64,000 nt of DNA from positions 8,977 through 72,976 of the forward strand of contig JAGWAO010000006.1 of NCBI GenBank assembly GCA_021296315.1. Direction: 5' to 3'. Origin of the DNA: Acidimicrobiia bacterium. Its GTDB lineage: Bacteria; Actinomycetota; Acidimicrobiia; Acidimicrobiales; Aldehydirespiratoraceae. The position numbers and the translations under genes are program-made. Below are positions 30,746-36,551 of this stretch, piece after piece. The notes under the pieces were generated by a model. It was given only the letters and a program-made list of their open reading frames with translations, searched no databases and was not told the DNA's origin. The first letter of the stretch is position 1. Each line of letters opens with the position of its first letter.

Positions 30746-31090
30746 GTGTTCCTGATCGACGAAGTTCGCTTCGAGCAGCTGGTGGGCGAGGCCCTCGATG
30801 CGCTGCCCCCCGCGCTGGGGGAGATGATGGAGAACATCGTGGTGGTGGTGGAGGACGTCCATCCCGAAGAGGACCTTCTCGGCCTCTACGAGGGGGTGCC
30901 GTTGACCGAGCGGGAGGATTACGGTGGGCTGGCCATGCCTGACCGGGTGACGGTCTACCGGCTGCCGATCTGCGAGATGTGCGGCAGCGAGGATGAGCTG
31001 CGGGAGGAGGTCCTGGTCACCGTGGTGCACGAGGTGGCCCACCACTTCGGCATCGACGACGAGACCCTGCATCAGCTCGGCTGGGACTAG
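30746..31090 (+). CDS. zincin-like metallopeptidase family protein (DUF1025 type)
   Basis: 114 aa with a GTG start. NIVVVVED..LGLYEG and the HExxH motif VVHEVAHHFG. Confidence 0.75.
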   Translation: MFLIDEVRFEQLVGEALDALPPALGEMMENIVVVVEDVHPEEDLLGLYEGVPLTEREDYGGLAMPDRVTVYRLPICEMCGSEDELREEVLVTVVHEVAHHFGIDDETLHQLGWD

Positions 31091-31153
31091 TCGGGGCGGC
31101 TGACGCCCGGATCGGAGTCGCTCGGACGGCTTGAGTTAATCGGTGTCCATGCC

Positions 31154-32671
31154 TCAGTCGAGGCGTGGAAACCGGCTTCGGGGACCGGCTTCGGCCCAGT
31201 CCATGTGGTTGCGGACGTATTCGTTGGCGGCGTCGCGCACCGGGTTGTAGTCCCACGAGTGCGGGCCGCCTGACTCGGTCGCAGCGTGAAGGACTCGCCG
31301 GGAGCGCTGCGAGTGCAGTACGCGGTCCCGGATTGCCGCGCTGTCCCAGCGCTGGGCGGTCTCGGCTGCGAGAGCGCCGGCCAGTGCTGTGTAGGCGGGG
31401 TCGTCGGCCAGGTTGTTGCGCTCCAGCGGATCAGCCTCCACGTCGTATAGCAGGGCCGGGTCGGTGTCGCAGTGGATGTACTTGTGACGACCCCGCCGGA
31501 TCATGAACATCGGATGCGAGGTCATCTCGGCCATGTACTCGCCGGTGGTCTCGTCGACGGCGTCGCGGCCGCCGGCCGCGAGTTCCCACAGGCTGCGACC
31601 CGCGATCGGCCTGCCGAGCTCGGGCCAGGCCCCGCCTCCGGTGGCGGTGTCGAGCAGCGTGGGCAGGAGATCCAGCAGTGAGCAGACGTTGGCCACCGAC
31701 CGGTTGGCCACGCCCGGCCCGGCCATGATCAGGGGCACCCGGACCGACCGCTCGAAGAACGAGAACTTGAAGAAGGAGCCCCGGTCGCCGAGCATGTCGC
31801 CGTGGTCGCTGGTCACGACGACCAGCGTGTTGTCGGCACGTCCGGTCTCTTCCAGCACCTGGACCAGCCGGCCGATCCACGAGTCGAAGTAGCTCGTGTT
31901 GGCGTAGTAGCCGTGGCGGGCGTTGCGGCACTGCTCAGTGCTGTAGCCGACCGTGTCGGCCTCGATGCCGCGGCGGATGCGCTGGGTGTGGGGGTCCATC
32001 TCACTCTCAGACATGGGCTCGGGCAGGTCGATGTCGTCGTGGTTGTAGAGGTTCCACCACTCGGGTCGGGCCACGTAAGGGTCGTGGGGGTGGATGAACG
32101 AGGCCACCAGGAAGAACGGCCGCTCGTCGGGGTCGCGGGCGAGGTCGTAGAGGCGGCGAGCCGCGGCAAACCCGACCTCCTCGTCGTAGTCGATCTGGTA
32201 GGTGGCCAGCGCATGGCCGGCCTCCGACAGGCTGTCCATATTGTGATACCACTTGCCGATGCGCGTGTCGGGATCGTCCCAGTTCGGGGTCCAGGCGAAG
32301 TCGGCGGGATAGATGTCGGTGGTGAGGCGCTCGTCGAACCCGTGGAGCTGGTCGGGCCCCACGAAGTGCATCTTCCCCGACAGGCAGGTGCGGTAGCCGG
32401 CCAGCGTCAGGTAGTGGGCCAGGGTGGGCACCGACGCCGGGAACTCCGCGGCGTTGTCCCAGGCTCCGATGGCCGACACCGGAAGACCAGCGAGCATGGT
32501 GAAGCGGGCCGGGGCGCATATCGGGGAGTGGCAGTAGGCCGCGTCGAAGCGGGCCCCGCGCTCGGCCAGCGCGTCCATCGCCGGCGTGCGCACCAAGGGG
32601 TGGCCGTAGGTCGCGGTGAAATGGGGCGCGAGCTGATCGGCCATAACGACCAGGATGTTGGGCCGGCTCAT
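31154..32671 (-). CDS. betC: choline-sulfatase
   Basis: MSRPNILVVMADQL..SPICAPARFTMLAG (CxPxR formylglycine motif), SDHGDMLG, and colinear choline-sulfatase length (505 aa). Confidence 0.85.
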   Translation of the reverse strand: MSRPNILVVMADQLAPHFTATYGHPLVRTPAMDALAERGARFDAAYCHSPICAPARFTMLAGLPVSAIGAWDNAAEFPASVPTLAHYLTLAGYRTCLSGKMHFVGPDQLHGFDERLTTDIYPADFAWTPNWDDPDTRIGKWYHNMDSLSEAGHALATYQIDYDEEVGFAAARRLYDLARDPDERPFFLVASFIHPHDPYVARPEWWNLYNHDDIDLPEPMSESEMDPHTQRIRRGIEADTVGYSTEQCRNARHGYYANTSYFDSWIGRLVQVLEETGRADNTLVVVTSDHGDMLGDRGSFFKFSFFERSVRVPLIMAGPGVANRSVANVCSLLDLLPTLLDTATGGGAWPELGRPIAGRSLWELAAGGRDAVDETTGEYMAEMTSHPMFMIRRGRHKYIHCDTDPALLYDVEADPLERNNLADDPAYTALAGALAAETAQRWDSAAIRDRVLHSQRSRRVLHAATESGGPHSWDYNPVRDAANEYVRNHMDWAEAGPRSRFPRLD

Positions 32672-32852
32672 GCGGGGACGCTACTTATGTGCTGCCGCCG
32701 GCTCATGTTCAGACGCTACATGCGCGCCACGCCCGCTCATTCCAGGACGCTAGCGGCAGGCGGGGATGGCCGCGGCCGGGGTCCGCGCCGCCCAGCACCG
32801 GCGCATGTACCTTGCGGCCGTCGCATCACCCACGAACGATTGGGACTAGCTG

Positions 32853-35285
32853 ATGAACGTCGCTACCGGTGCAATGGTTGTCGCGGTCCTGCTTGCGTCG
32901 CTGATCGCTCCGTCGACCGCTCTGGCCCAGGCCGAGGAGCCGGTCGACCGTGAGGCGCTGGTGGGGTTCTTCGTTGCGACCGGAGGCGACACTTGGGGTC
33001 GGAGCGACAACTGGGGCTCGGATCTGCCGCTGGATCGGTGGCACGGAGTGGGCACCGACAGCGCGGGCCGGGTGGTGAGCCTGGCCCTGCCGTCCAACGG
33101 GCTCGTCGGGCCGATCCCAGCATCGATCGGCAGCCTCACCCGCCTGGAGCACCTGGATCTCGCCGACAACGACGTGTACGGGGAGATCCCCGCCGAAATC
33201 GGCGATCTGGCAAACCTGATCCACCTGGACCTCCACAACAACCGGCTGGACCGCCCCATCCCCCCCGAGGTCGGCAGCCTCGCCGCATTGGAGGTGCTGG
33301 ACCTCAAACACAACCATCTGTCAGGGGCGATACCAGCCGAGGTCGGCAACCTCGCCAGCCTCAGGATCCTCGACCTGCGAGGCAACGGCCTCTCCCGCCA
33401 GGTGCCGGACTCGCTCGGCGGGCTCTCCAGCCTCACCCGCCTGGTGCTCAGCGGCAACCGGCTGTCCGGAGGGATGCCGCCAGAGCTGGGAAGCCTGGGC
33501 AGCCTCGTGTGGCTGGACATGAGCCGCAACTCGCTGTCGGGTGACATCCCGCCCGAGATGGGTGACCTCGCCAACCTGACCTGGCTCGATCTCAGCAGCA
33601 ACTACCTCTCGGGCCAGGTTCCACCTGAGCTGGGCCGCCTGTCGCACCTCAGGACGCTCAGCCTGTGGCTCAACGGGCTGACCGGGGAGATCCCCCCGGA
33701 GTTGGGCGACTTGGCCGCGCTCGAGGATCTGAGCCTGAGCCTCAACGATCTGTCCGGCACGATCCCGCCCGAACTGGGGAGGTTGACCGCACTGCGGCTG
33801 CTGCGGCTCGGGCACAACCAGCTGTCGGGCTCGATTCCCGCCGAGTTCGGCAAGCTCGGTGGCCTGCGGTACCTCTGGCTCGAGGACAACGAGTTGTCGG
33901 GAGCCATTCCGGCGGAGTTGGGCGATCTGCACGGCCTCAAGGGTCTCTGGCTCGAGGGCAACCGGCTGTCCGGCTCCATACCCGACGAGATAGGCCGACT
34001 TCGGTGGCTGCGGAGGATGTATCTCCACGACAACCGGCTGTCGGGCGACATCCCAGCCTCGATCGGGGAACTGTCCCGCCTGGAGGAGCTTCGCCTGGAC
34101 GGCAACGAGCTGACGGGCGAGCTGCCGGCAGCTCTGGGCGAACTCAGCAACCTCGAGCGCATGAACCTGGCCGACAACTGGCTCTTTGGGGAGATTCCCT
34201 CCCAGATTGCGAACCTCGGAAGGTTGCAGATCCTGCGGCTGAACGACAACGAGCTGAAGGGGCCCATCCCCGCCGGCATTGGCCGCCTGACCCGACTCAC
34301 AGAACTCGATCTGCACGACAACGCACTCACTGGGCCGATTCCCGCGGGGATCGGCAAGTTGGGCGAGCTCAGGCGCCTGCGGCTCCACAACAACCGGCTG
34401 TCGGGGGGGATCCCGCCCGGCATCGGCAGGCTCGCAGAGCTCTCAGTCCTCGATCTGAGTGACAACCGTCTGTCGGGCGCAATACCCGAGAGCCTGGGAG
34501 ACCTCTCGAACCTCACGCAGCTGATCCTCCGCGAGAATCAGCTGGTGGGGGAGATTCCCGCGTCGCTAGCCCGCCTCGGCCGCCTCGAGTGGCTGGACCT
34601 CAGTCTCAACCAGCTGCACGGGCCGATCCCGCCCGGAGTGGGCGACCTCGCGAGCCTTGAAGCCTTATACCTCAGCTTCAACTTCCTGGACGGGGAGATC
34701 CCCGAAGAGTTCGGAAACCTCGCCAACCTCAAGATCCTGAAGCTCCGCTGGAACGAGCTCTCCGGCGAGATTCCCGCCCAGCTCGGCGACCTGAGCAGCC
34801 TCCGGCAGTTGAACCTGTGGCACAACCGTCTCACTGGGCCGATCCCGCCCGAGCTCGGCCGTCTTGTGAACCTGACCCGGCTCGACCTCGACGGCAACGA
34901 GCTGTCGGGCGAGATCCCCGAGGAGCTCGGCAACCTCAGCCTGCTGACGGAGCTGTGGCTCACGGGCAACGACCTGTCCGGCGGGATCCCCGCTGAGCTG
35001 GGCCGCCTTACCGGGTTGAGGCGCCTGTATCTCGACGGCAACCGCCTCACCGGCGCGATACCGGCTGGGCTGGCGAACCTGGCTGGCCTTAGGAGGCTGT
35101 GGCTCCAGGACAATGAGCTGTCGGGCGAGATTCCCACCCGATTGGGCGGCTTGACCGGCCTGGAGCAGATCTTCCTCGGCGGCACCAACGCGCTGGACGG
35201 ATGCCTACCAGCGGCGTGGGAGTCGCTCGACACCTTGGTTGGCGACTTGGACACGCTGGGCCTGGAGTTCTGCGCCGTCTCCTAG
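32853..35285 (+). CDS. secreted leucine-rich repeat protein, plant-specific-type 24-residue LRRs
   Basis: Signal peptide MNVATGAMVVAVLLASLIAPSTALAQA. LRRNT-like cap (..WGSDLPLDRWHGVGTDSAGRVVSLAL). Then 29 uninterrupted repeats of LxxLxLxxNxLSGxIPxELGxLxx. Confidence 0.85.
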   Translation: MNVATGAMVVAVLLASLIAPSTALAQAEEPVDREALVGFFVATGGDTWGRSDNWGSDLPLDRWHGVGTDSAGRVVSLALPSNGLVGPIPASIGSLTRLEHLDLADNDVYGEIPAEIGDLANLIHLDLHNNRLDRPIPPEVGSLAALEVLDLKHNHLSGAIPAEVGNLASLRILDLRGNGLSRQVPDSLGGLSSLTRLVLSGNRLSGGMPPELGSLGSLVWLDMSRNSLSGDIPPEMGDLANLTWLDLSSNYLSGQVPPELGRLSHLRTLSLWLNGLTGEIPPELGDLAALEDLSLSLNDLSGTIPPELGRLTALRLLRLGHNQLSGSIPAEFGKLGGLRYLWLEDNELSGAIPAELGDLHGLKGLWLEGNRLSGSIPDEIGRLRWLRRMYLHDNRLSGDIPASIGELSRLEELRLDGNELTGELPAALGELSNLERMNLADNWLFGEIPSQIANLGRLQILRLNDNELKGPIPAGIGRLTRLTELDLHDNALTGPIPAGIGKLGELRRLRLHNNRLSGGIPPGIGRLAELSVLDLSDNRLSGAIPESLGDLSNLTQLILRENQLVGEIPASLARLGRLEWLDLSLNQLHGPIPPGVGDLASLEALYLSFNFLDGEIPEEFGNLANLKILKLRWNELSGEIPAQLGDLSSLRQLNLWHNRLTGPIPPELGRLVNLTRLDLDGNELSGEIPEELGNLSLLTELWLTGNDLSGGIPAELGRLTGLRRLYLDGNRLTGAIPAGLANLAGLRRLWLQDNELSGEIPTRLGGLTGLEQIFLGGTNALDGCLPAAWESLDTLVGDLDTLGLEFCAVS
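33072..35159 (+). repeat. 72-bp coding tandem array (29 LRR units)
   Basis: Strict 24-codon periodicity read directly from the translation. It generates several long spurious ORFs in other frames. Confidence 0.85.
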
Positions 35286-35336
35286 CGGCCAGGCGTGGCC
35301 GCTGCCGGTTCGTGGACATATAGTCTCCGTCGACAA

Positions 35337-35439
35337 CCAAGACCGGGGAGCTCGGGACAGCCGGGCTGAGAGGGCACCCACGCGATCGCCGCGGTGTCGA
35401 CCCGCCGACCTGATCTGGGTAATGCCAGCGGAGGAAGGC
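35337..35439 (+). promoter_or_regulatory. TPP (THI-box) riboswitch
   Basis: ggggagc..gggctgagag..acccgccgacctgatctgggtaatgccagcggaggaagg matches the THI element core (CUGAGA, ACCUGAUCUGGAUAAUGCCAGCG). Its 3' end contains the GGAGGAAGG SD of the downstream ABC binding protein. Confidence 0.85.
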
Positions 35440-35441
35440 CC

Positions 35442-36551
35442 ATGGATCACCAATCCCAACCAACTCCGATTCACCCGAGCGCGCCCCGTCGCACGAGCAG
35501 TCGACGGATCTGGGCGATGGCGGTCGCCGCAGCCGCGTTGGCCGTGTTGGCCGGGGCGTGCAGCGGTGACCGCTCCGATGACCCCGTGGACCTCTCGGGC
35601 ACCACGGTGACGCTGCTCACCCACGACTCGTTCTACGTCTCGCCCGAGACCTTCGAGGCGTTCACCGCGTCGACCGGCATCGTGGTGGAGCAGCTCGCCT
35701 CGGGCGATGCCGGTGAGCTGGTGGCCCAGGCGTGCCTGACTGCCGGCAAGCCGCTCGGAGACGTGCTGTTCGGGATCGACAACACGTTCCTGCAGCGCGG
35801 TCTCGACTGCGGCATGTTCGAGCCCTATACGTCGCCCAATCTCGCCGATGTGCCTGACCATTTCGAGCTCGATCCGGAGCACCGAGTCACTCCCATCGAC
35901 TACGGCGATGTGTGCCTCAACTACTGGGTCGACTCCTTCGACGGCTCAACGGCCCCGCCGTCGTCCCTCGACGATCTGATCGACCCCGCCTACGCAGGCA
36001 TGCTCGTCGTGCAGAGCCCAGAGACCTCGTCGCCGGGACTGGCCTTCCTGCTGGCCACCATCGCCCGTTACGGCGAAGGCTGGGAGGACTACTGGGCCGC
36101 GCTGCGCGACAACGGCGTGTCGGTCACCGCGGGCTGGGAGGACGCCTACTACGGCGAGTTCGCCGCCGGCGGCGGCAACCGGCCGATCGTGGTGTCGTAC
36201 GCGTCCAGCCCGCCCGCCGAGGTGATGTTCGCCGACCCGCCCGTTGATGAGCCGCCAACGGGAGTGGTGACCGCCAGCTGCTACCGCCAGATCGAGTTCG
36301 CCGGGGTGCTCTCCGGTGCCGGCAATCCGGTCGGCGCACAGGCCCTGATCGACTTCATGCTCACGCCGACGTTCCAGAACGACGTTCCGCTCAACATGTT
36401 CGTCTTCCCGGTCATCACAACTGCCACCCTCCCGGACGCGTTCGTCGAGCACGCCGAGATGGCGGACGATCCGTTCATTCTTGAGCCCGCCCAGGTCGAG
36501 GCCCAGCGCAACGCCTGGACGGACCGGTGGGTGGAGATAGTCCTGCGCTGA
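35442..36551 (+). CDS. thiamine/TPP-type ABC transporter substrate-binding lipoprotein
   Basis: ATG 35442 lies after the riboswitch SD. Lipobox LAGACSG. Fe3+/thiamine-type periplasmic binding protein fold. The riboswitch context supports a thiamine-related substrate. Confidence 0.8.
   Translation: MDHQSQPTPIHPSAPRRTSSRRIWAMAVAAAALAVLAGACSGDRSDDPVDLSGTTVTLLTHDSFYVSPETFEAFTASTGIVVEQLASGDAGELVAQACLTAGKPLGDVLFGIDNTFLQRGLDCGMFEPYTSPNLADVPDHFELDPEHRVTPIDYGDVCLNYWVDSFDGSTAPPSSLDDLIDPAYAGMLVVQSPETSSPGLAFLLATIARYGEGWEDYWAALRDNGVSVTAGWEDAYYGEFAAGGGNRPIVVSYASSPPAEVMFADPPVDEPPTGVVTASCYRQIEFAGVLSGAGNPVGAQALIDFMLTPTFQNDVPLNMFVFPVITTATLPDAFVEHAEMADDPFILEPAQVEAQRNAWTDRWVEIVLR

Follow-up and report, generated by a model that had tools for sequence, protein, structure and literature searches.

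A plant-type leucine-rich repeat protein in a genus of sponge-associated Acidimicrobiia: fold, inheritance and candidate role

The 64,000-nucleotide stretch of Acidimicrobiia DNA analyzed here (the window) encodes LRR810, a predicted secreted protein composed almost entirely of leucine-rich repeats (LRRs) of the kind found in plant receptor ectodomains. An earlier note on this locus, made from the sequence alone, raised the possibility that such a protein is a horizontally acquired or convergent binding scaffold.

Layout and predicted fold of LRR810

Reading the open reading frame in a 24-residue register bore out the description of an 810-aa protein with a signal peptide and 29 exact 24-residue repeats (Table 1). 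The N-terminus (MNVATGAMVVAVLLASLIAPSTALA|QAEEP) resembles a Sec signal peptide, having on inspection a hydrophobic core and an ALA|QA site and neither a lipobox Cys nor a twin-Arg motif; the AF2 model falls below a pLDDT of 50 solely in these 26 residues. The N-terminal cap (DREALVGFF...WxxxxNWGSDLPLDRWHGVGTDSAGR), in which W48, W54, W63, G65 and V66 are invariant, is collinear with that of FLS2 in a phmmer alignment that pairs the FLS2 cap cysteines with D and T of LRR810. The earlier note had called this cap LRRNT-like, which holds for its layout and fails for the cysteine pair and for LRRNT_2 (PF08263), to which Pfam gave no match even at E<=10; its weak Pfam match is PF18805 LRR_10 (E=0.095). 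The HMM search that had been proposed did match the LRR families PF00560, PF12799 and PF13855, and these alone, confirming that the protein has no enzymatic, anchor or island domain recognizable by Pfam; the end of the reading frame and Pfam likewise gave no transmembrane helix or kinase domain.

Table 1. Features of the LRR810 locus (positions in the window unless a contig is named) and of the separate SBP5 gene
Feature	Position	Strand	Basis or detail
Variable segment of genus-level hotspot (sulfatase and LRR genes)	31089..35331	.	comparison with congeners
Choline-sulfatase-like gene (Sulfatase + Choline_sulf_C), divergent	31154..32671	-	Pfam
LRR810 CDS, stop codon included	32853..35285	+	ATG start; 810 aa, LRR-only, exported (predicted)
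Sec signal peptide (predicted), residues 1-26	32853..32930	+	sequence reading; orthologues share layout
N-terminal cap without cysteine, residues 27-73	32931..33071	+	phmmer vs FLS2 N-cap
29 uninterrupted 24-residue PS-class LRRs, residues 74-769	33072..35159	+	24-residue register, AF2 model
LRR5-8, first conserved concave patch	33360..33647	+	D174, R176, W220, D222, S224, W244, D246
LRR23-29, most conserved repeats, second concave patch	34656..35159	+	lowest per-repeat entropy
C-terminal cap	35160..35282	+	degenerate 30th LRR + GC(L/I)PxxW...LGLEFC; Cys784, Cys807 invariant
TPP riboswitch, between LRR gene and downstream thiamine-type ABC transporter genes	35334..35453	+	RF00059
SBP_bac_6 solute-binding lipoprotein gene, right flank, own riboswitch	35394..36551	+	Pfam; not the SBP_bac_5 fusion partner
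Stand-alone SBP_bac_5 lipoprotein gene (SBP5)	G000:C59:32001-33932	-	match to P0008 C-terminal domain

The array runs without a single indel and follows the unit consensus LxxLxLxxNxL(S/T)GxIPxxLGxLxx, with N9, P16 and L22 kept in all 29 units, L1, L6 and L11 in 28 each, L4 and G13 in 27, G20 in 26, I15 in 25 and S/T12 in 21. The 24-residue unit length that characterizes the PS class is found in 29/29 units. A degenerate 30th unit (residues 770-793) begins the C-terminal cap, and the reading frame terminates three residues past the second cap cysteine.

The claim that these repeats belong to the plant-type class and not to the shorter bacterial LRRs was supported by searches with both sequence and structure. 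The best 40 sequence matches in the PDB were all plant LRR receptor-kinase ectodomains (MIK2, at 605 bits, GSO1, FLS2 and PEPR1), the top bacterial LRR structure scoring 194 bits. The structure prediction suggested by the earlier note yielded an AF2 model of pLDDT 93.5 with the superhelix of a plant ectodomain, the best Foldseek matches being GSO1 and FLS2 (TM 0.82-0.84 over 763-800 columns). DSSP assigned E3-E4-H5, that is, beta-beta-short helix, to every repeat of the model; the PS-LRR unit is beta-beta-3_10, with a second sheet made by LSGxIP (PMC5976695), and LRR810 has this unit in a predicted rather than an experimental structure. According to the model, the 29 repeats of LRR810 fold as a single continuous right-handed PS-class superhelix, whose caps are of bacterial type.

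The PS class was originally defined as confined to plant extracellular proteins (PMC2244805). LRR810 departs from that definition in being bacterial and in having bacterial homologues in thousands, and bacterial PS-LRRs were already described by Miyashita et al. 2013 (Nat Sci 5:580), as cited in PMC9471246. Two hallmarks of the plant LRR-RLK/RLP ectodomain, the LRRNT_2 cysteine pair and the transmembrane helix (with or without a kinase domain), are both absent from LRR810.

Inheritance of the gene and stability of the array

Among the long open reading frames of its genome, LRR810 ranks at the 74th percentile in GC3 (0.868) and at the 57th in synonymous codon choice; widespread close homologues in related bacteria, with native-like composition, are what the earlier note had named as arguing against recent transfer. 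It has no paralogue in the genome (tblastn returned the gene itself as sole match). Full-length syntenic orthologues at 63-76% identity are present in 17 of 24 congeners (Candidatus Aldehydirespirator, sponge Acidimicrobiia), with dS of 0.5-0.86 among them, and LRR distances track those of the flanking genes (Spearman 0.68 for tbp and 0.61 for the sulfatase). No orthologue was found in 16 other families of the order, matches in the class are rare (7 of 300 genomes), and four congeners lack the gene at an empty site. Because GC3 and codon choice are native, orthologues occupy the same locus and distances correlate with the flanks, LRR810 is best read as a lineage-specific, native and vertically inherited gene of this sponge-associated genus.

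Repeat-based trees are unreliable, and plant versus bacterial origin was judged by identity ranking together with comparison of the caps. Of 120 matches listed, the closest relatives outside the genus are bacterial (57-59% identity); one match could be identified as a plant receptor kinase, and it is 41% identical to LRR810. The C-cap motif GCxPxxW...FC is common to LRR810 and proteins of Chloroflexota. A recent horizontal transfer of a receptor ectodomain from a plant or an alga would fit the repeat class, the fold and an N-cap layout like those of plant LRR receptor kinases, and an exchange of PS-LRRs between plants and bacteria was proposed by Miyashita et al. 2013 (as cited in PMC9471246). 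Such a recent transfer is contradicted by the native composition, by genus-wide synteny at such synonymous divergence, by bacterial relatives being nearer than the plant kinase among the matches listed, by caps that are not of plant type (the N-cap without cysteines or LRRNT_2, the C-cap with its Chloroflexota motif) and by the absence of both kinase and transmembrane segment, and is scarcely credible; an ancient one is possible, from plant to bacterium or the reverse. Possession of plant-type repeats is not in itself evidence that a gene passed from plant to bacterium.

The earlier note had also described a DNA-level array of 72-bp repeats prone to expansion and contraction. There are indeed 29 units of 72 bp, but their periodicity is weak: Tandem Repeats Finder reported two stretches alone (2.6-2.7 copies, 70-72% match), nucleotide identity between units averages 0.58 with a maximum of 0.72, and exact direct repeats reach no more than 18 bp. 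The comparison of repeat number that the note had proposed gave 29 in 18 of 19 orthologues, and the same number is retained by the Poriferisodalis fusion proteins described below; array indels among the 19 orthologues amount to one 2-repeat insertion and one 2-residue insertion. Since the 72-bp units are diverged and 29 repeats are kept in nearly all orthologues, the repeat number is fixed and the array is not expansion-prone.

Locus, selection and the SBP5 lipoprotein

LRR810 lies in the variable segment of a genus-level hotspot that is missing from G009, G012, G013 and G023, in which the gap between a 114-aa gene and the TPP riboswitch shrinks to ~50-365 bp. These empty sites showed no trace of either the LRR or the sulfatase gene, which leaves insertion and deletion indistinguishable. 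The sulfatase gene adjoins the LRR gene in 12/19 genomes and varies independently of it. The riboswitch (52.9 bits against a gathering score of 54.3, E 8e-10) is kept in congeners, and the spacer between the LRR gene and the downstream transporter genes differs in length from one orthologue to another (110 bp to 2.6 kb); an operon joining them was rejected on both grounds. The downstream solute-binding protein gene was likewise rejected as counterpart of the fusion partner discussed below, as it belongs to SBP_bac_6 and not SBP_bac_5. Scans of 32500-35600 for sigma-70 promoters and terminators found nothing, and tblastn against plasmids and phages, as possible mobile vehicles, gave just generic LRR matches below 40% identity.

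Substitution patterns indicate purifying selection: overall omega is ~0.32, scaffold positions have 0.08, x positions on the concave face 0.3-0.4 and those on the convex face 0.5-0.6. The flanking genes have omega of 0.15-0.27 at comparable dS; the evolutionary rate of LRR810 is about double that of its neighbours, yet it is under purifying selection. The concave face is better conserved than the convex face, and diversifying selection on the former was not seen, its omega being the lower of the two. Conservation computed over 19 orthologues and seven fusion proteins picked out two concave patches, of which the second comprises S608, F609, R632, N654, W656, R676, D678, D680, E700, W702, R724, Y726, R748 and W750. 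The invariant Trp, Tyr, Arg and Asp residues of LRR5-8 and LRR23-29 are candidate contact sites.

A possible partner is suggested by Candidatus Poriferisodalis, in which 1390-aa proteins (P0001-P0013, annotated 'ABC transporter substrate-binding protein') join an LRR array to an SBP_bac_5 domain. P0008 is 57% identical to LRR810 over 804 residues without a gap, its signal peptide, both caps and 29 repeats being collinear; there is no synteny between the fusion genes and the LRR810 locus, their neighbours being different. The C-terminal domain of P0008 matches one gene of the LRR810 genome at 70% identity over 566 aa (the second-best match is 26%). The lipoprotein encoded by this gene, SBP5, has a lipobox, a Pro/Glu linker and an SBP_bac_5 domain; it is an orphan solute-binding protein, with no permease gene nearby. 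In the fusion, the array stands in place of the lipobox and linker of stand-alone SBP5.

The SBP5 gene was found in 20/24 congeners and had no close match in 300 other Acidimicrobiia genomes. It is missing from the incomplete G014 and from three genomes in which the LRR site is also empty (G009, G012 and G013); in G023 the LRR site is empty but the SBP5 gene is present. The joint absence from G009, G012 and G013 may go back to one event in their phylogeny. Among the matches listed, LRRs are also fused to trypsin-like, subtilase and metzincin proteases, to fn3 and Ig-like domains and to a DctP-type SBP, the last in P0102, where a lipid anchor and the SBP flank the LRR modules. Because the LRR is such a promiscuous fusion domain, the Poriferisodalis fusion is weak evidence of a specific partnership. 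An AF2 model of a fused LRR18-29 and SBP5 piece, built to see if the SBP packs against the conserved patch, had a poor SBP part (mean pLDDT 64.7, pTM 0.44) and an unreadable interface.

Candidate roles and comparison with known systems

The names of the relatives (MAG SB0675_bin_16, Candidatus Aldehydirespirator, Candidatus Poriferisodalis and Caldilineaceae SB0662, from several sponge-symbiont phyla) suggest that the genome carrying LRR810 is sponge-associated. In comparison with free-living relatives, sponge-symbiotic members of UBA11606 (Aldehydirespiratoraceae) and TK06 (Poriferisodalaceae) are reported to be significantly enriched in LRR proteins (PMC11706023). LRR810 carries the LRR domains by which the eukaryotic-like LRR proteins of sponge symbionts are recognized, its sponge setting coming from the names of its relatives, and it joins these known eukaryote-like repeat proteins. 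The interaction with a eukaryotic host that the earlier note had suggested for it is a plausible role, with a sponge as the host.

On these observations it is fairly probable that LRR810 is a vertically inherited, secreted ligand-binding solenoid for sponge-symbiont interaction, possibly acting with the SBP5 lipoprotein. The protein would be exported via Sec, without an anchor or catalytic domain, and would act as an extracellular binding scaffold recognizing one conserved ligand, and not a diversifying set, along its concave face, which would group it functionally with the eukaryotic-like LRR proteins deployed by sponge symbionts where they meet the host. The gene fusion and co-distribution suggest orphan, lipid-anchored SBP5 as its probable partner, which could tether LRR810 at the cell surface or take over its bound ligand. 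A more elaborate form of this proposal, in which the two proteins constitute an extracellular receptor or capture device, the free solenoid holding a sponge-derived peptide or protein on its concave face and docking via the invariant LRR23-29 patch onto the membrane-anchored SBP, with the pair fused in Poriferisodalis and moved as a functional unit between two sponge-symbiont lineages, is speculative and rather doubtful; if true, it would be a bacterial counterpart of the plant LRR receptor with its partner.

Other roles would account for part of the same evidence. LRR810 might act alone as a host-directed adhesin or immune-evasion decoy, the SBP5 fusion being incidental, in the manner of the ankyrin ELPs of sponge symbionts that hinder amoebal phagocytosis (PMC11706023). 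Both the enrichment of LRR ELPs in sponge symbionts of this lineage and its sister and the clean empty site in some congeners would agree with this, but the diversifying selection usual on host-recognition surfaces is not seen, the gene is single-copy in the genome and the LRR and SBP5 distributions match; such a lone role is possible, if on the whole unlikely. A strictly fixed length would fit a spacer, and the positions of the array in the Poriferisodalis fusion and of the LRR modules in P0102 are those expected if the superhelix were a rigid stalk or envelope tether for SBPs and proteases, with stand-alone LRR810 a split-off stalk binding the cell wall or SBP5. The conserved concave Trp, Arg and Asp patches would be needless in a plain spacer, however, stand-alone LRR810 carries no attached cargo, and we know of no use of LRRs as cell-wall-binding modules, all of which makes a structural role improbable. 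Less probable again is a secreted inhibitor, akin to the plant polygalacturonase-inhibiting proteins (PGIPs), that would clamp and block a hydrolase of the host or of a competitor (lysozyme, protease or glycosidase) within the sponge mesohyl. PGIPs share the soluble, LRR-only, PS-class architecture, aromatic and charged residues abound on the conserved concave face, and purifying selection suits a single fixed target; 29 repeats nevertheless far exceed the ~10 of PGIPs, no target enzyme is genetically linked, and a solute-binding protein as fusion partner in relatives is unexpected for an inhibitor.

To our knowledge, no ligand is known for bacterial PS-LRR proteins, nor a ligand, partner or mechanism for the eukaryote-like LRR class of symbionts. 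For the ligand-binding solenoid preferred here, the fusion names a concrete candidate partner, the orphan SBP5, which makes the binding question experimentally approachable, and single-copy occurrence, fixed length, purifying selection and presence and absence states at one locus make LRR810 a clean case for study.

Internalins and type III effectors have LRRs of 20-22 residues and either an anchor (LPXTG or GW) or a type III signal. Bacterial LRR virulence proteins such as Listeria internalins, Xanthomonas XopAE, XopAC and XopL and the Leptospira LIC LRR proteins are, like the proposed LRR810, bacterial host-binding solenoids, but they differ in repeat class, length and caps and have anchors or type III signals absent from LRR810, whose NCBIfam scores fall far under the cut-offs for these families (294 vs 600 for XopAE, 122 vs 1600 for InlA). 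PGIP (1OGQ) is likewise soluble, secreted, LRR-only and of PS class, and differs in its ~10 repeats and cysteine-rich caps. Plant ectodomains without an island (GSO1/SGN3, 6s6q; FLS2, 4mn8; PEPR1, 5gr8; MIK2, 8web) share with LRR810 the 24-residue PS repeats, a single superhelix built of ~28-32 of them and an N-cap that is collinear in layout; LRR810 is bacterial, lacks the transmembrane helix, kinase, N-cap cysteine pair and LRRNT_2, and has a bacterial-type C-cap. The Poriferisodalis proteins extend into SBP_bac_5 at an unrelated locus, whereas the LRR810 genome encodes SBP5 separately. Studies of sponge-symbiont ELPs count domains, without the PS subclass, the fixed 29-repeat orthologue, the hotspot locus or the SBP_bac_5 link described here, and it is the LRR members of that group (PMC11706023; Reynolds & Thomas 2016, cited there) that LRR810 resembles in Pfam domains, lineage and export.

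Architecture and stability of the repeat array

The LRR gene is open throughout and encodes an 810-aa protein (LRR810), residues 74-769 of which form 29 units of 24 residues with zero indels when printed in a 24-residue register, after which come a 30th, degenerate unit and a short two-cysteine tail. The unit consensus, LxxLxLxxNxL(S/T)GxIPxxLGxLxx, is that of the plant-specific (PS) LRR class; N9, P16, and L22 occur in 29/29 units, G13 in 27/29, G20 in 26/29, and I15 in 25/29. Pfam recognizes LRR families and nothing else, and the internalin and Xanthomonas LRR effector models of NCBIfam all scored far under their cut-offs. An uninterrupted array of 29 plant-type repeats, as described in the earlier note, is therefore real. 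Export is predicted from the N-terminus, which reads as a hydrophobic core followed by an ALA|QA site, with neither a lipobox cysteine nor a twin arginine.

The one part of that description that did not hold is the supposed proneness of a 72-bp array to expansion and contraction. Tandem Repeats Finder reported only two short stretches (70-72% match), the 29 units share a mean nucleotide identity of 58% (maximum 72%), and the longest exact direct repeat within the gene is 18 bp. Alignment of 19 orthologues revealed just three indel events: a 2-residue insertion giving a 26-residue LRR4 in four genomes (loci L017, L018, L024, and L026), a 48-residue (two-repeat) insertion near LRR27-28 in a single congener (G011), whose orthologue has 31 repeats, and a one-residue indel in the C-cap, seen in two genomes. 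Length changes inside the array are thus limited to the first two. Together with a gapless alignment over 804 residues to P0008, a 1390-aa protein representative of the LRR-SBP_bac_5 fusions of Candidatus Poriferisodalis, these results indicate that repeat number is conserved rather than labile.

Locus variation and origin

Across the genus, the hotspot bounded by a 114-aa HExxH gene on one side and by the TPP riboswitch of a thiamine-type ABC transporter on the other exists in three states. The 114-aa gene is followed by sulfatase, LRR, and SBP_bac_6 genes in 12 genomes including this window, by LRR and SBP_bac_6 in seven, and by SBP_bac_6 directly in four (G009, G012, G013, and G023). At the empty sites homology ends at 31088 and restarts at 35332, coinciding with the riboswitch; they hold no remnants of the LRR or sulfatase genes, and the hotspot showed neither a mobility gene nor a remnant. 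The LRR and choline-sulfatase-like genes, which are divergently transcribed across a 181-bp spacer, therefore vary independently inside one hotspot. In some congeners the LRR gene and the transporter are set 0.5-2.6 kb further apart by extra DNA. In three fragmented congeners the contig breaks directly beside the transporter gene, and these assemblies may lack a repeat gene. The riboswitch, missed at the default threshold, is 85-90% conserved in congeners and precedes the SBP_bac_6 and permease genes, indicating that these are separately controlled and that the LRR gene is its own unit. The riboswitch also suggests that SBP_bac_6 starts at ATG 35443 rather than GTG 35394.

Coordinates of features at the LRR locus and of related genes elsewhere
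Feature	Position	Strand	Remarks
114-aa gene	30746-31090		HExxH
Hotspot	31089-35331		
Choline-sulfatase-like gene	31154-32671	-	CxPxR motif CAPAR, without signal peptide
LRR gene	32853-35285	+	810 aa
TPP riboswitch	35334-35453	+	RF00059, full-length; 52.9 bits, just below the gathering score of 54.3; E 8e-10
SBP5 gene	G000:C59:32001-33932 (= L050:7999-9933)	-	lipobox LVAC, Pro/Glu-rich (APVEEP)n linker, SBP_bac_5 domain
LRR orthologue L027	G011:C1:3300912-3303479		31 repeats
LRR gene copies in G010	G010:C1:1711658-1714078; G010:C2:6617-9025		both full-length

Recent horizontal acquisition, a possibility raised earlier along with a comparison of codon usage and GC3, is contradicted by both composition and distribution. 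G+C is even across the gene, GC3 (0.868) falls at the 74th percentile (mean for long ORFs of the genome 0.79 ± 0.09), and synonymous codon choice falls at the 57th percentile of those ORFs. No paralogue exists in the same genome; in whole-genome searches, orthologues spanning the full length (residues about 1-809, at 63-76% identity) were found in 17/24 same-genus genomes and in 0/16 other families of the order, and only 7/300 sampled Acidimicrobiia genomes gave any match at E<=1e-30, all short arrays. Relatives bear public names such as 'MAG: Acidimicrobiaceae bacterium SB0675_bin_16' and 'Candidatus Aldehydirespirator sp.' Outside the genus, the best matches are 1390-aa Candidatus Poriferisodalis proteins and an Acidimicrobiales MAG (57-59% identity), then LRR proteins that match part of LRR810 at no more than about 50% identity, and trypsin/SH3-fused LRR proteins at 40-45%, some named Caldilineaceae. 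Of the 120 matches listed, only one could be identified as a plant receptor kinase, at 41% identity over 68% of LRR810. Native composition and close homologues in related bacteria, which the earlier note named as grounds against recent transfer, make a recently transferred plant gene very unlikely, and LRR distances correlate with those of the flanks (Spearman 0.61-0.68), as vertical descent predicts.

The window's genome has one LRR gene only; several congeners (G003, G017, G024, and G023) yield as many as 15 LRR matches each and also contain PS-LRR segments in open frames of very large size, about 2000-3000 aa. The congener G010 shows two LRR gene copies, one on a 14.7-kb contig, which may reflect either genuine duplication of the gene or an artefact of assembly.

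The concave face and a candidate partner

Nei-Gojobori dN/dS of orthologues, each against the window sequence, is 0.27-0.37 for the whole LRR gene, 0.06-0.10 at scaffold positions, 0.27-0.44 at concave x positions (2, 3, 5, 7, and 8), and 0.45-0.75 at convex/loop x positions; the flanking sulfatase and SBP genes give 0.14-0.27 at comparable dS. Conservation is higher on the concave face, the ligand-binding side of plant LRR receptors, than on the convex face, and among repeats it peaks in LRR22-28. Two patches on the concave face do not vary among the orthologues and seven Poriferisodalis fusion proteins, one in LRR5-8 (D174, R176, W220, D222, S224, W244, and D246) and one in LRR23-29 (S608, F609, R632, N654, W656, R676, D678, D680, E700, W702, R724, Y726, R748, and W750). 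Such conservation agrees with one conserved ligand or partner and not with an arms-race surface. The most likely function would be to bind a conserved ligand outside the cell, at the host interface.

A candidate partner is suggested by the fusions. The best thirteen database clusters for LRR810 are 1370-1390-aa proteins that match it in signal peptide, caps, and 29-repeat array before running directly into a terminal SBP_bac_5 domain; in Poriferisodalis their genes occupy an unrelated locus. Over 566 aa, the SBP part of P0008 shares 70% identity with an orphan lipoprotein of the window's genome (SBP5; runner-up match 26%), with no transporter genes near its gene. SBP5 has orthologues in 20/24 congeners, with no close orthologue in 16 other families or 300 other Acidimicrobiia genomes; it is confined to this genus among the genomes sampled and represents, as a separate protein, the C-terminal domain of the fusions. 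None of the nearest 120 stand-alone relatives exceeds 71% identity to the fused domain, so nothing points to a further free-standing copy in the lineage that has the fusion. Of the four congeners missing SBP5, G009, G012, and G013 also have the empty LRR site, and the G014 genome is incomplete.

The fusion and the matching distribution suggest that LRR810 and SBP5 may work together. However, many other extracellular domains are joined to LRR arrays among the same matches, the co-absence may reflect a single evolutionary event, and G023 has SBP5 without the LRR gene. In an AlphaFold2 model of the fused C-terminal part, the SBP domain was modelled too poorly to reveal any interface. SBP5 is a specific candidate partner, though not a proven one. 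Another type of LRR-SBP fusion is seen in the 1318-aa metagenome protein P0102, in which a lipobox and a Pro/Thr linker precede two PS-LRR modules, each with its own caps, and a DctP (TRAP-type) solute-binding domain.

Relationship to plant and sponge-symbiont LRR proteins

In a phmmer search of PDB sequences, the best 40 matches were all plant LRR receptor-kinase ectodomains, led by MIK2 (605 bits) and then GSO1, FLS2, PEPR1, RGFR1, and BRI1; the highest bacterial LRR structure was Leptospira LIC11098 (194 bits). The AlphaFold2 model (14 input sequences; mean pLDDT 93.5, pTM 0.83) is disordered only at the N-terminus and has a strand-strand-short helix in each repeat, corresponding to the beta-beta-3_10 PS-LRR unit (PMC5976695). 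Foldseek aligned it with GSO1/SGN3 (TM 0.82 over 800 columns) and FLS2 (TM 0.84), although the model is biased towards plant ectodomains since AlphaFold2 training included such structures. The LRRNT-like cap proposed in the earlier note stands insofar as the N-cap is collinear with that of FLS2; the two cap cysteines of the plant protein align with Asp and Thr, and Pfam LRRNT_2 gave no match even at E<=10. The C-cap, GGTNxLxGC(L/I)PxxW...LGLEFC, is unlike that of plants and takes a form that Chloroflexota sponge-symbiont proteins also show.

PS-type LRRs in bacteria have already been published (Miyashita et al. 2013, as cited in PMC9471246), and sponge-symbiotic members of UBA11606 (Aldehydirespiratoraceae) and TK06 (Poriferisodalaceae) are reported to be significantly richer in LRR-domain proteins than free-living relatives (PMC11706023). 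LRR810 is a native, genus-specific PS-class LRR solenoid, predicted to be exported, of a sponge-associated actinobacterium, and belongs with the eukaryotic-like LRR proteins already known from sponge symbionts.
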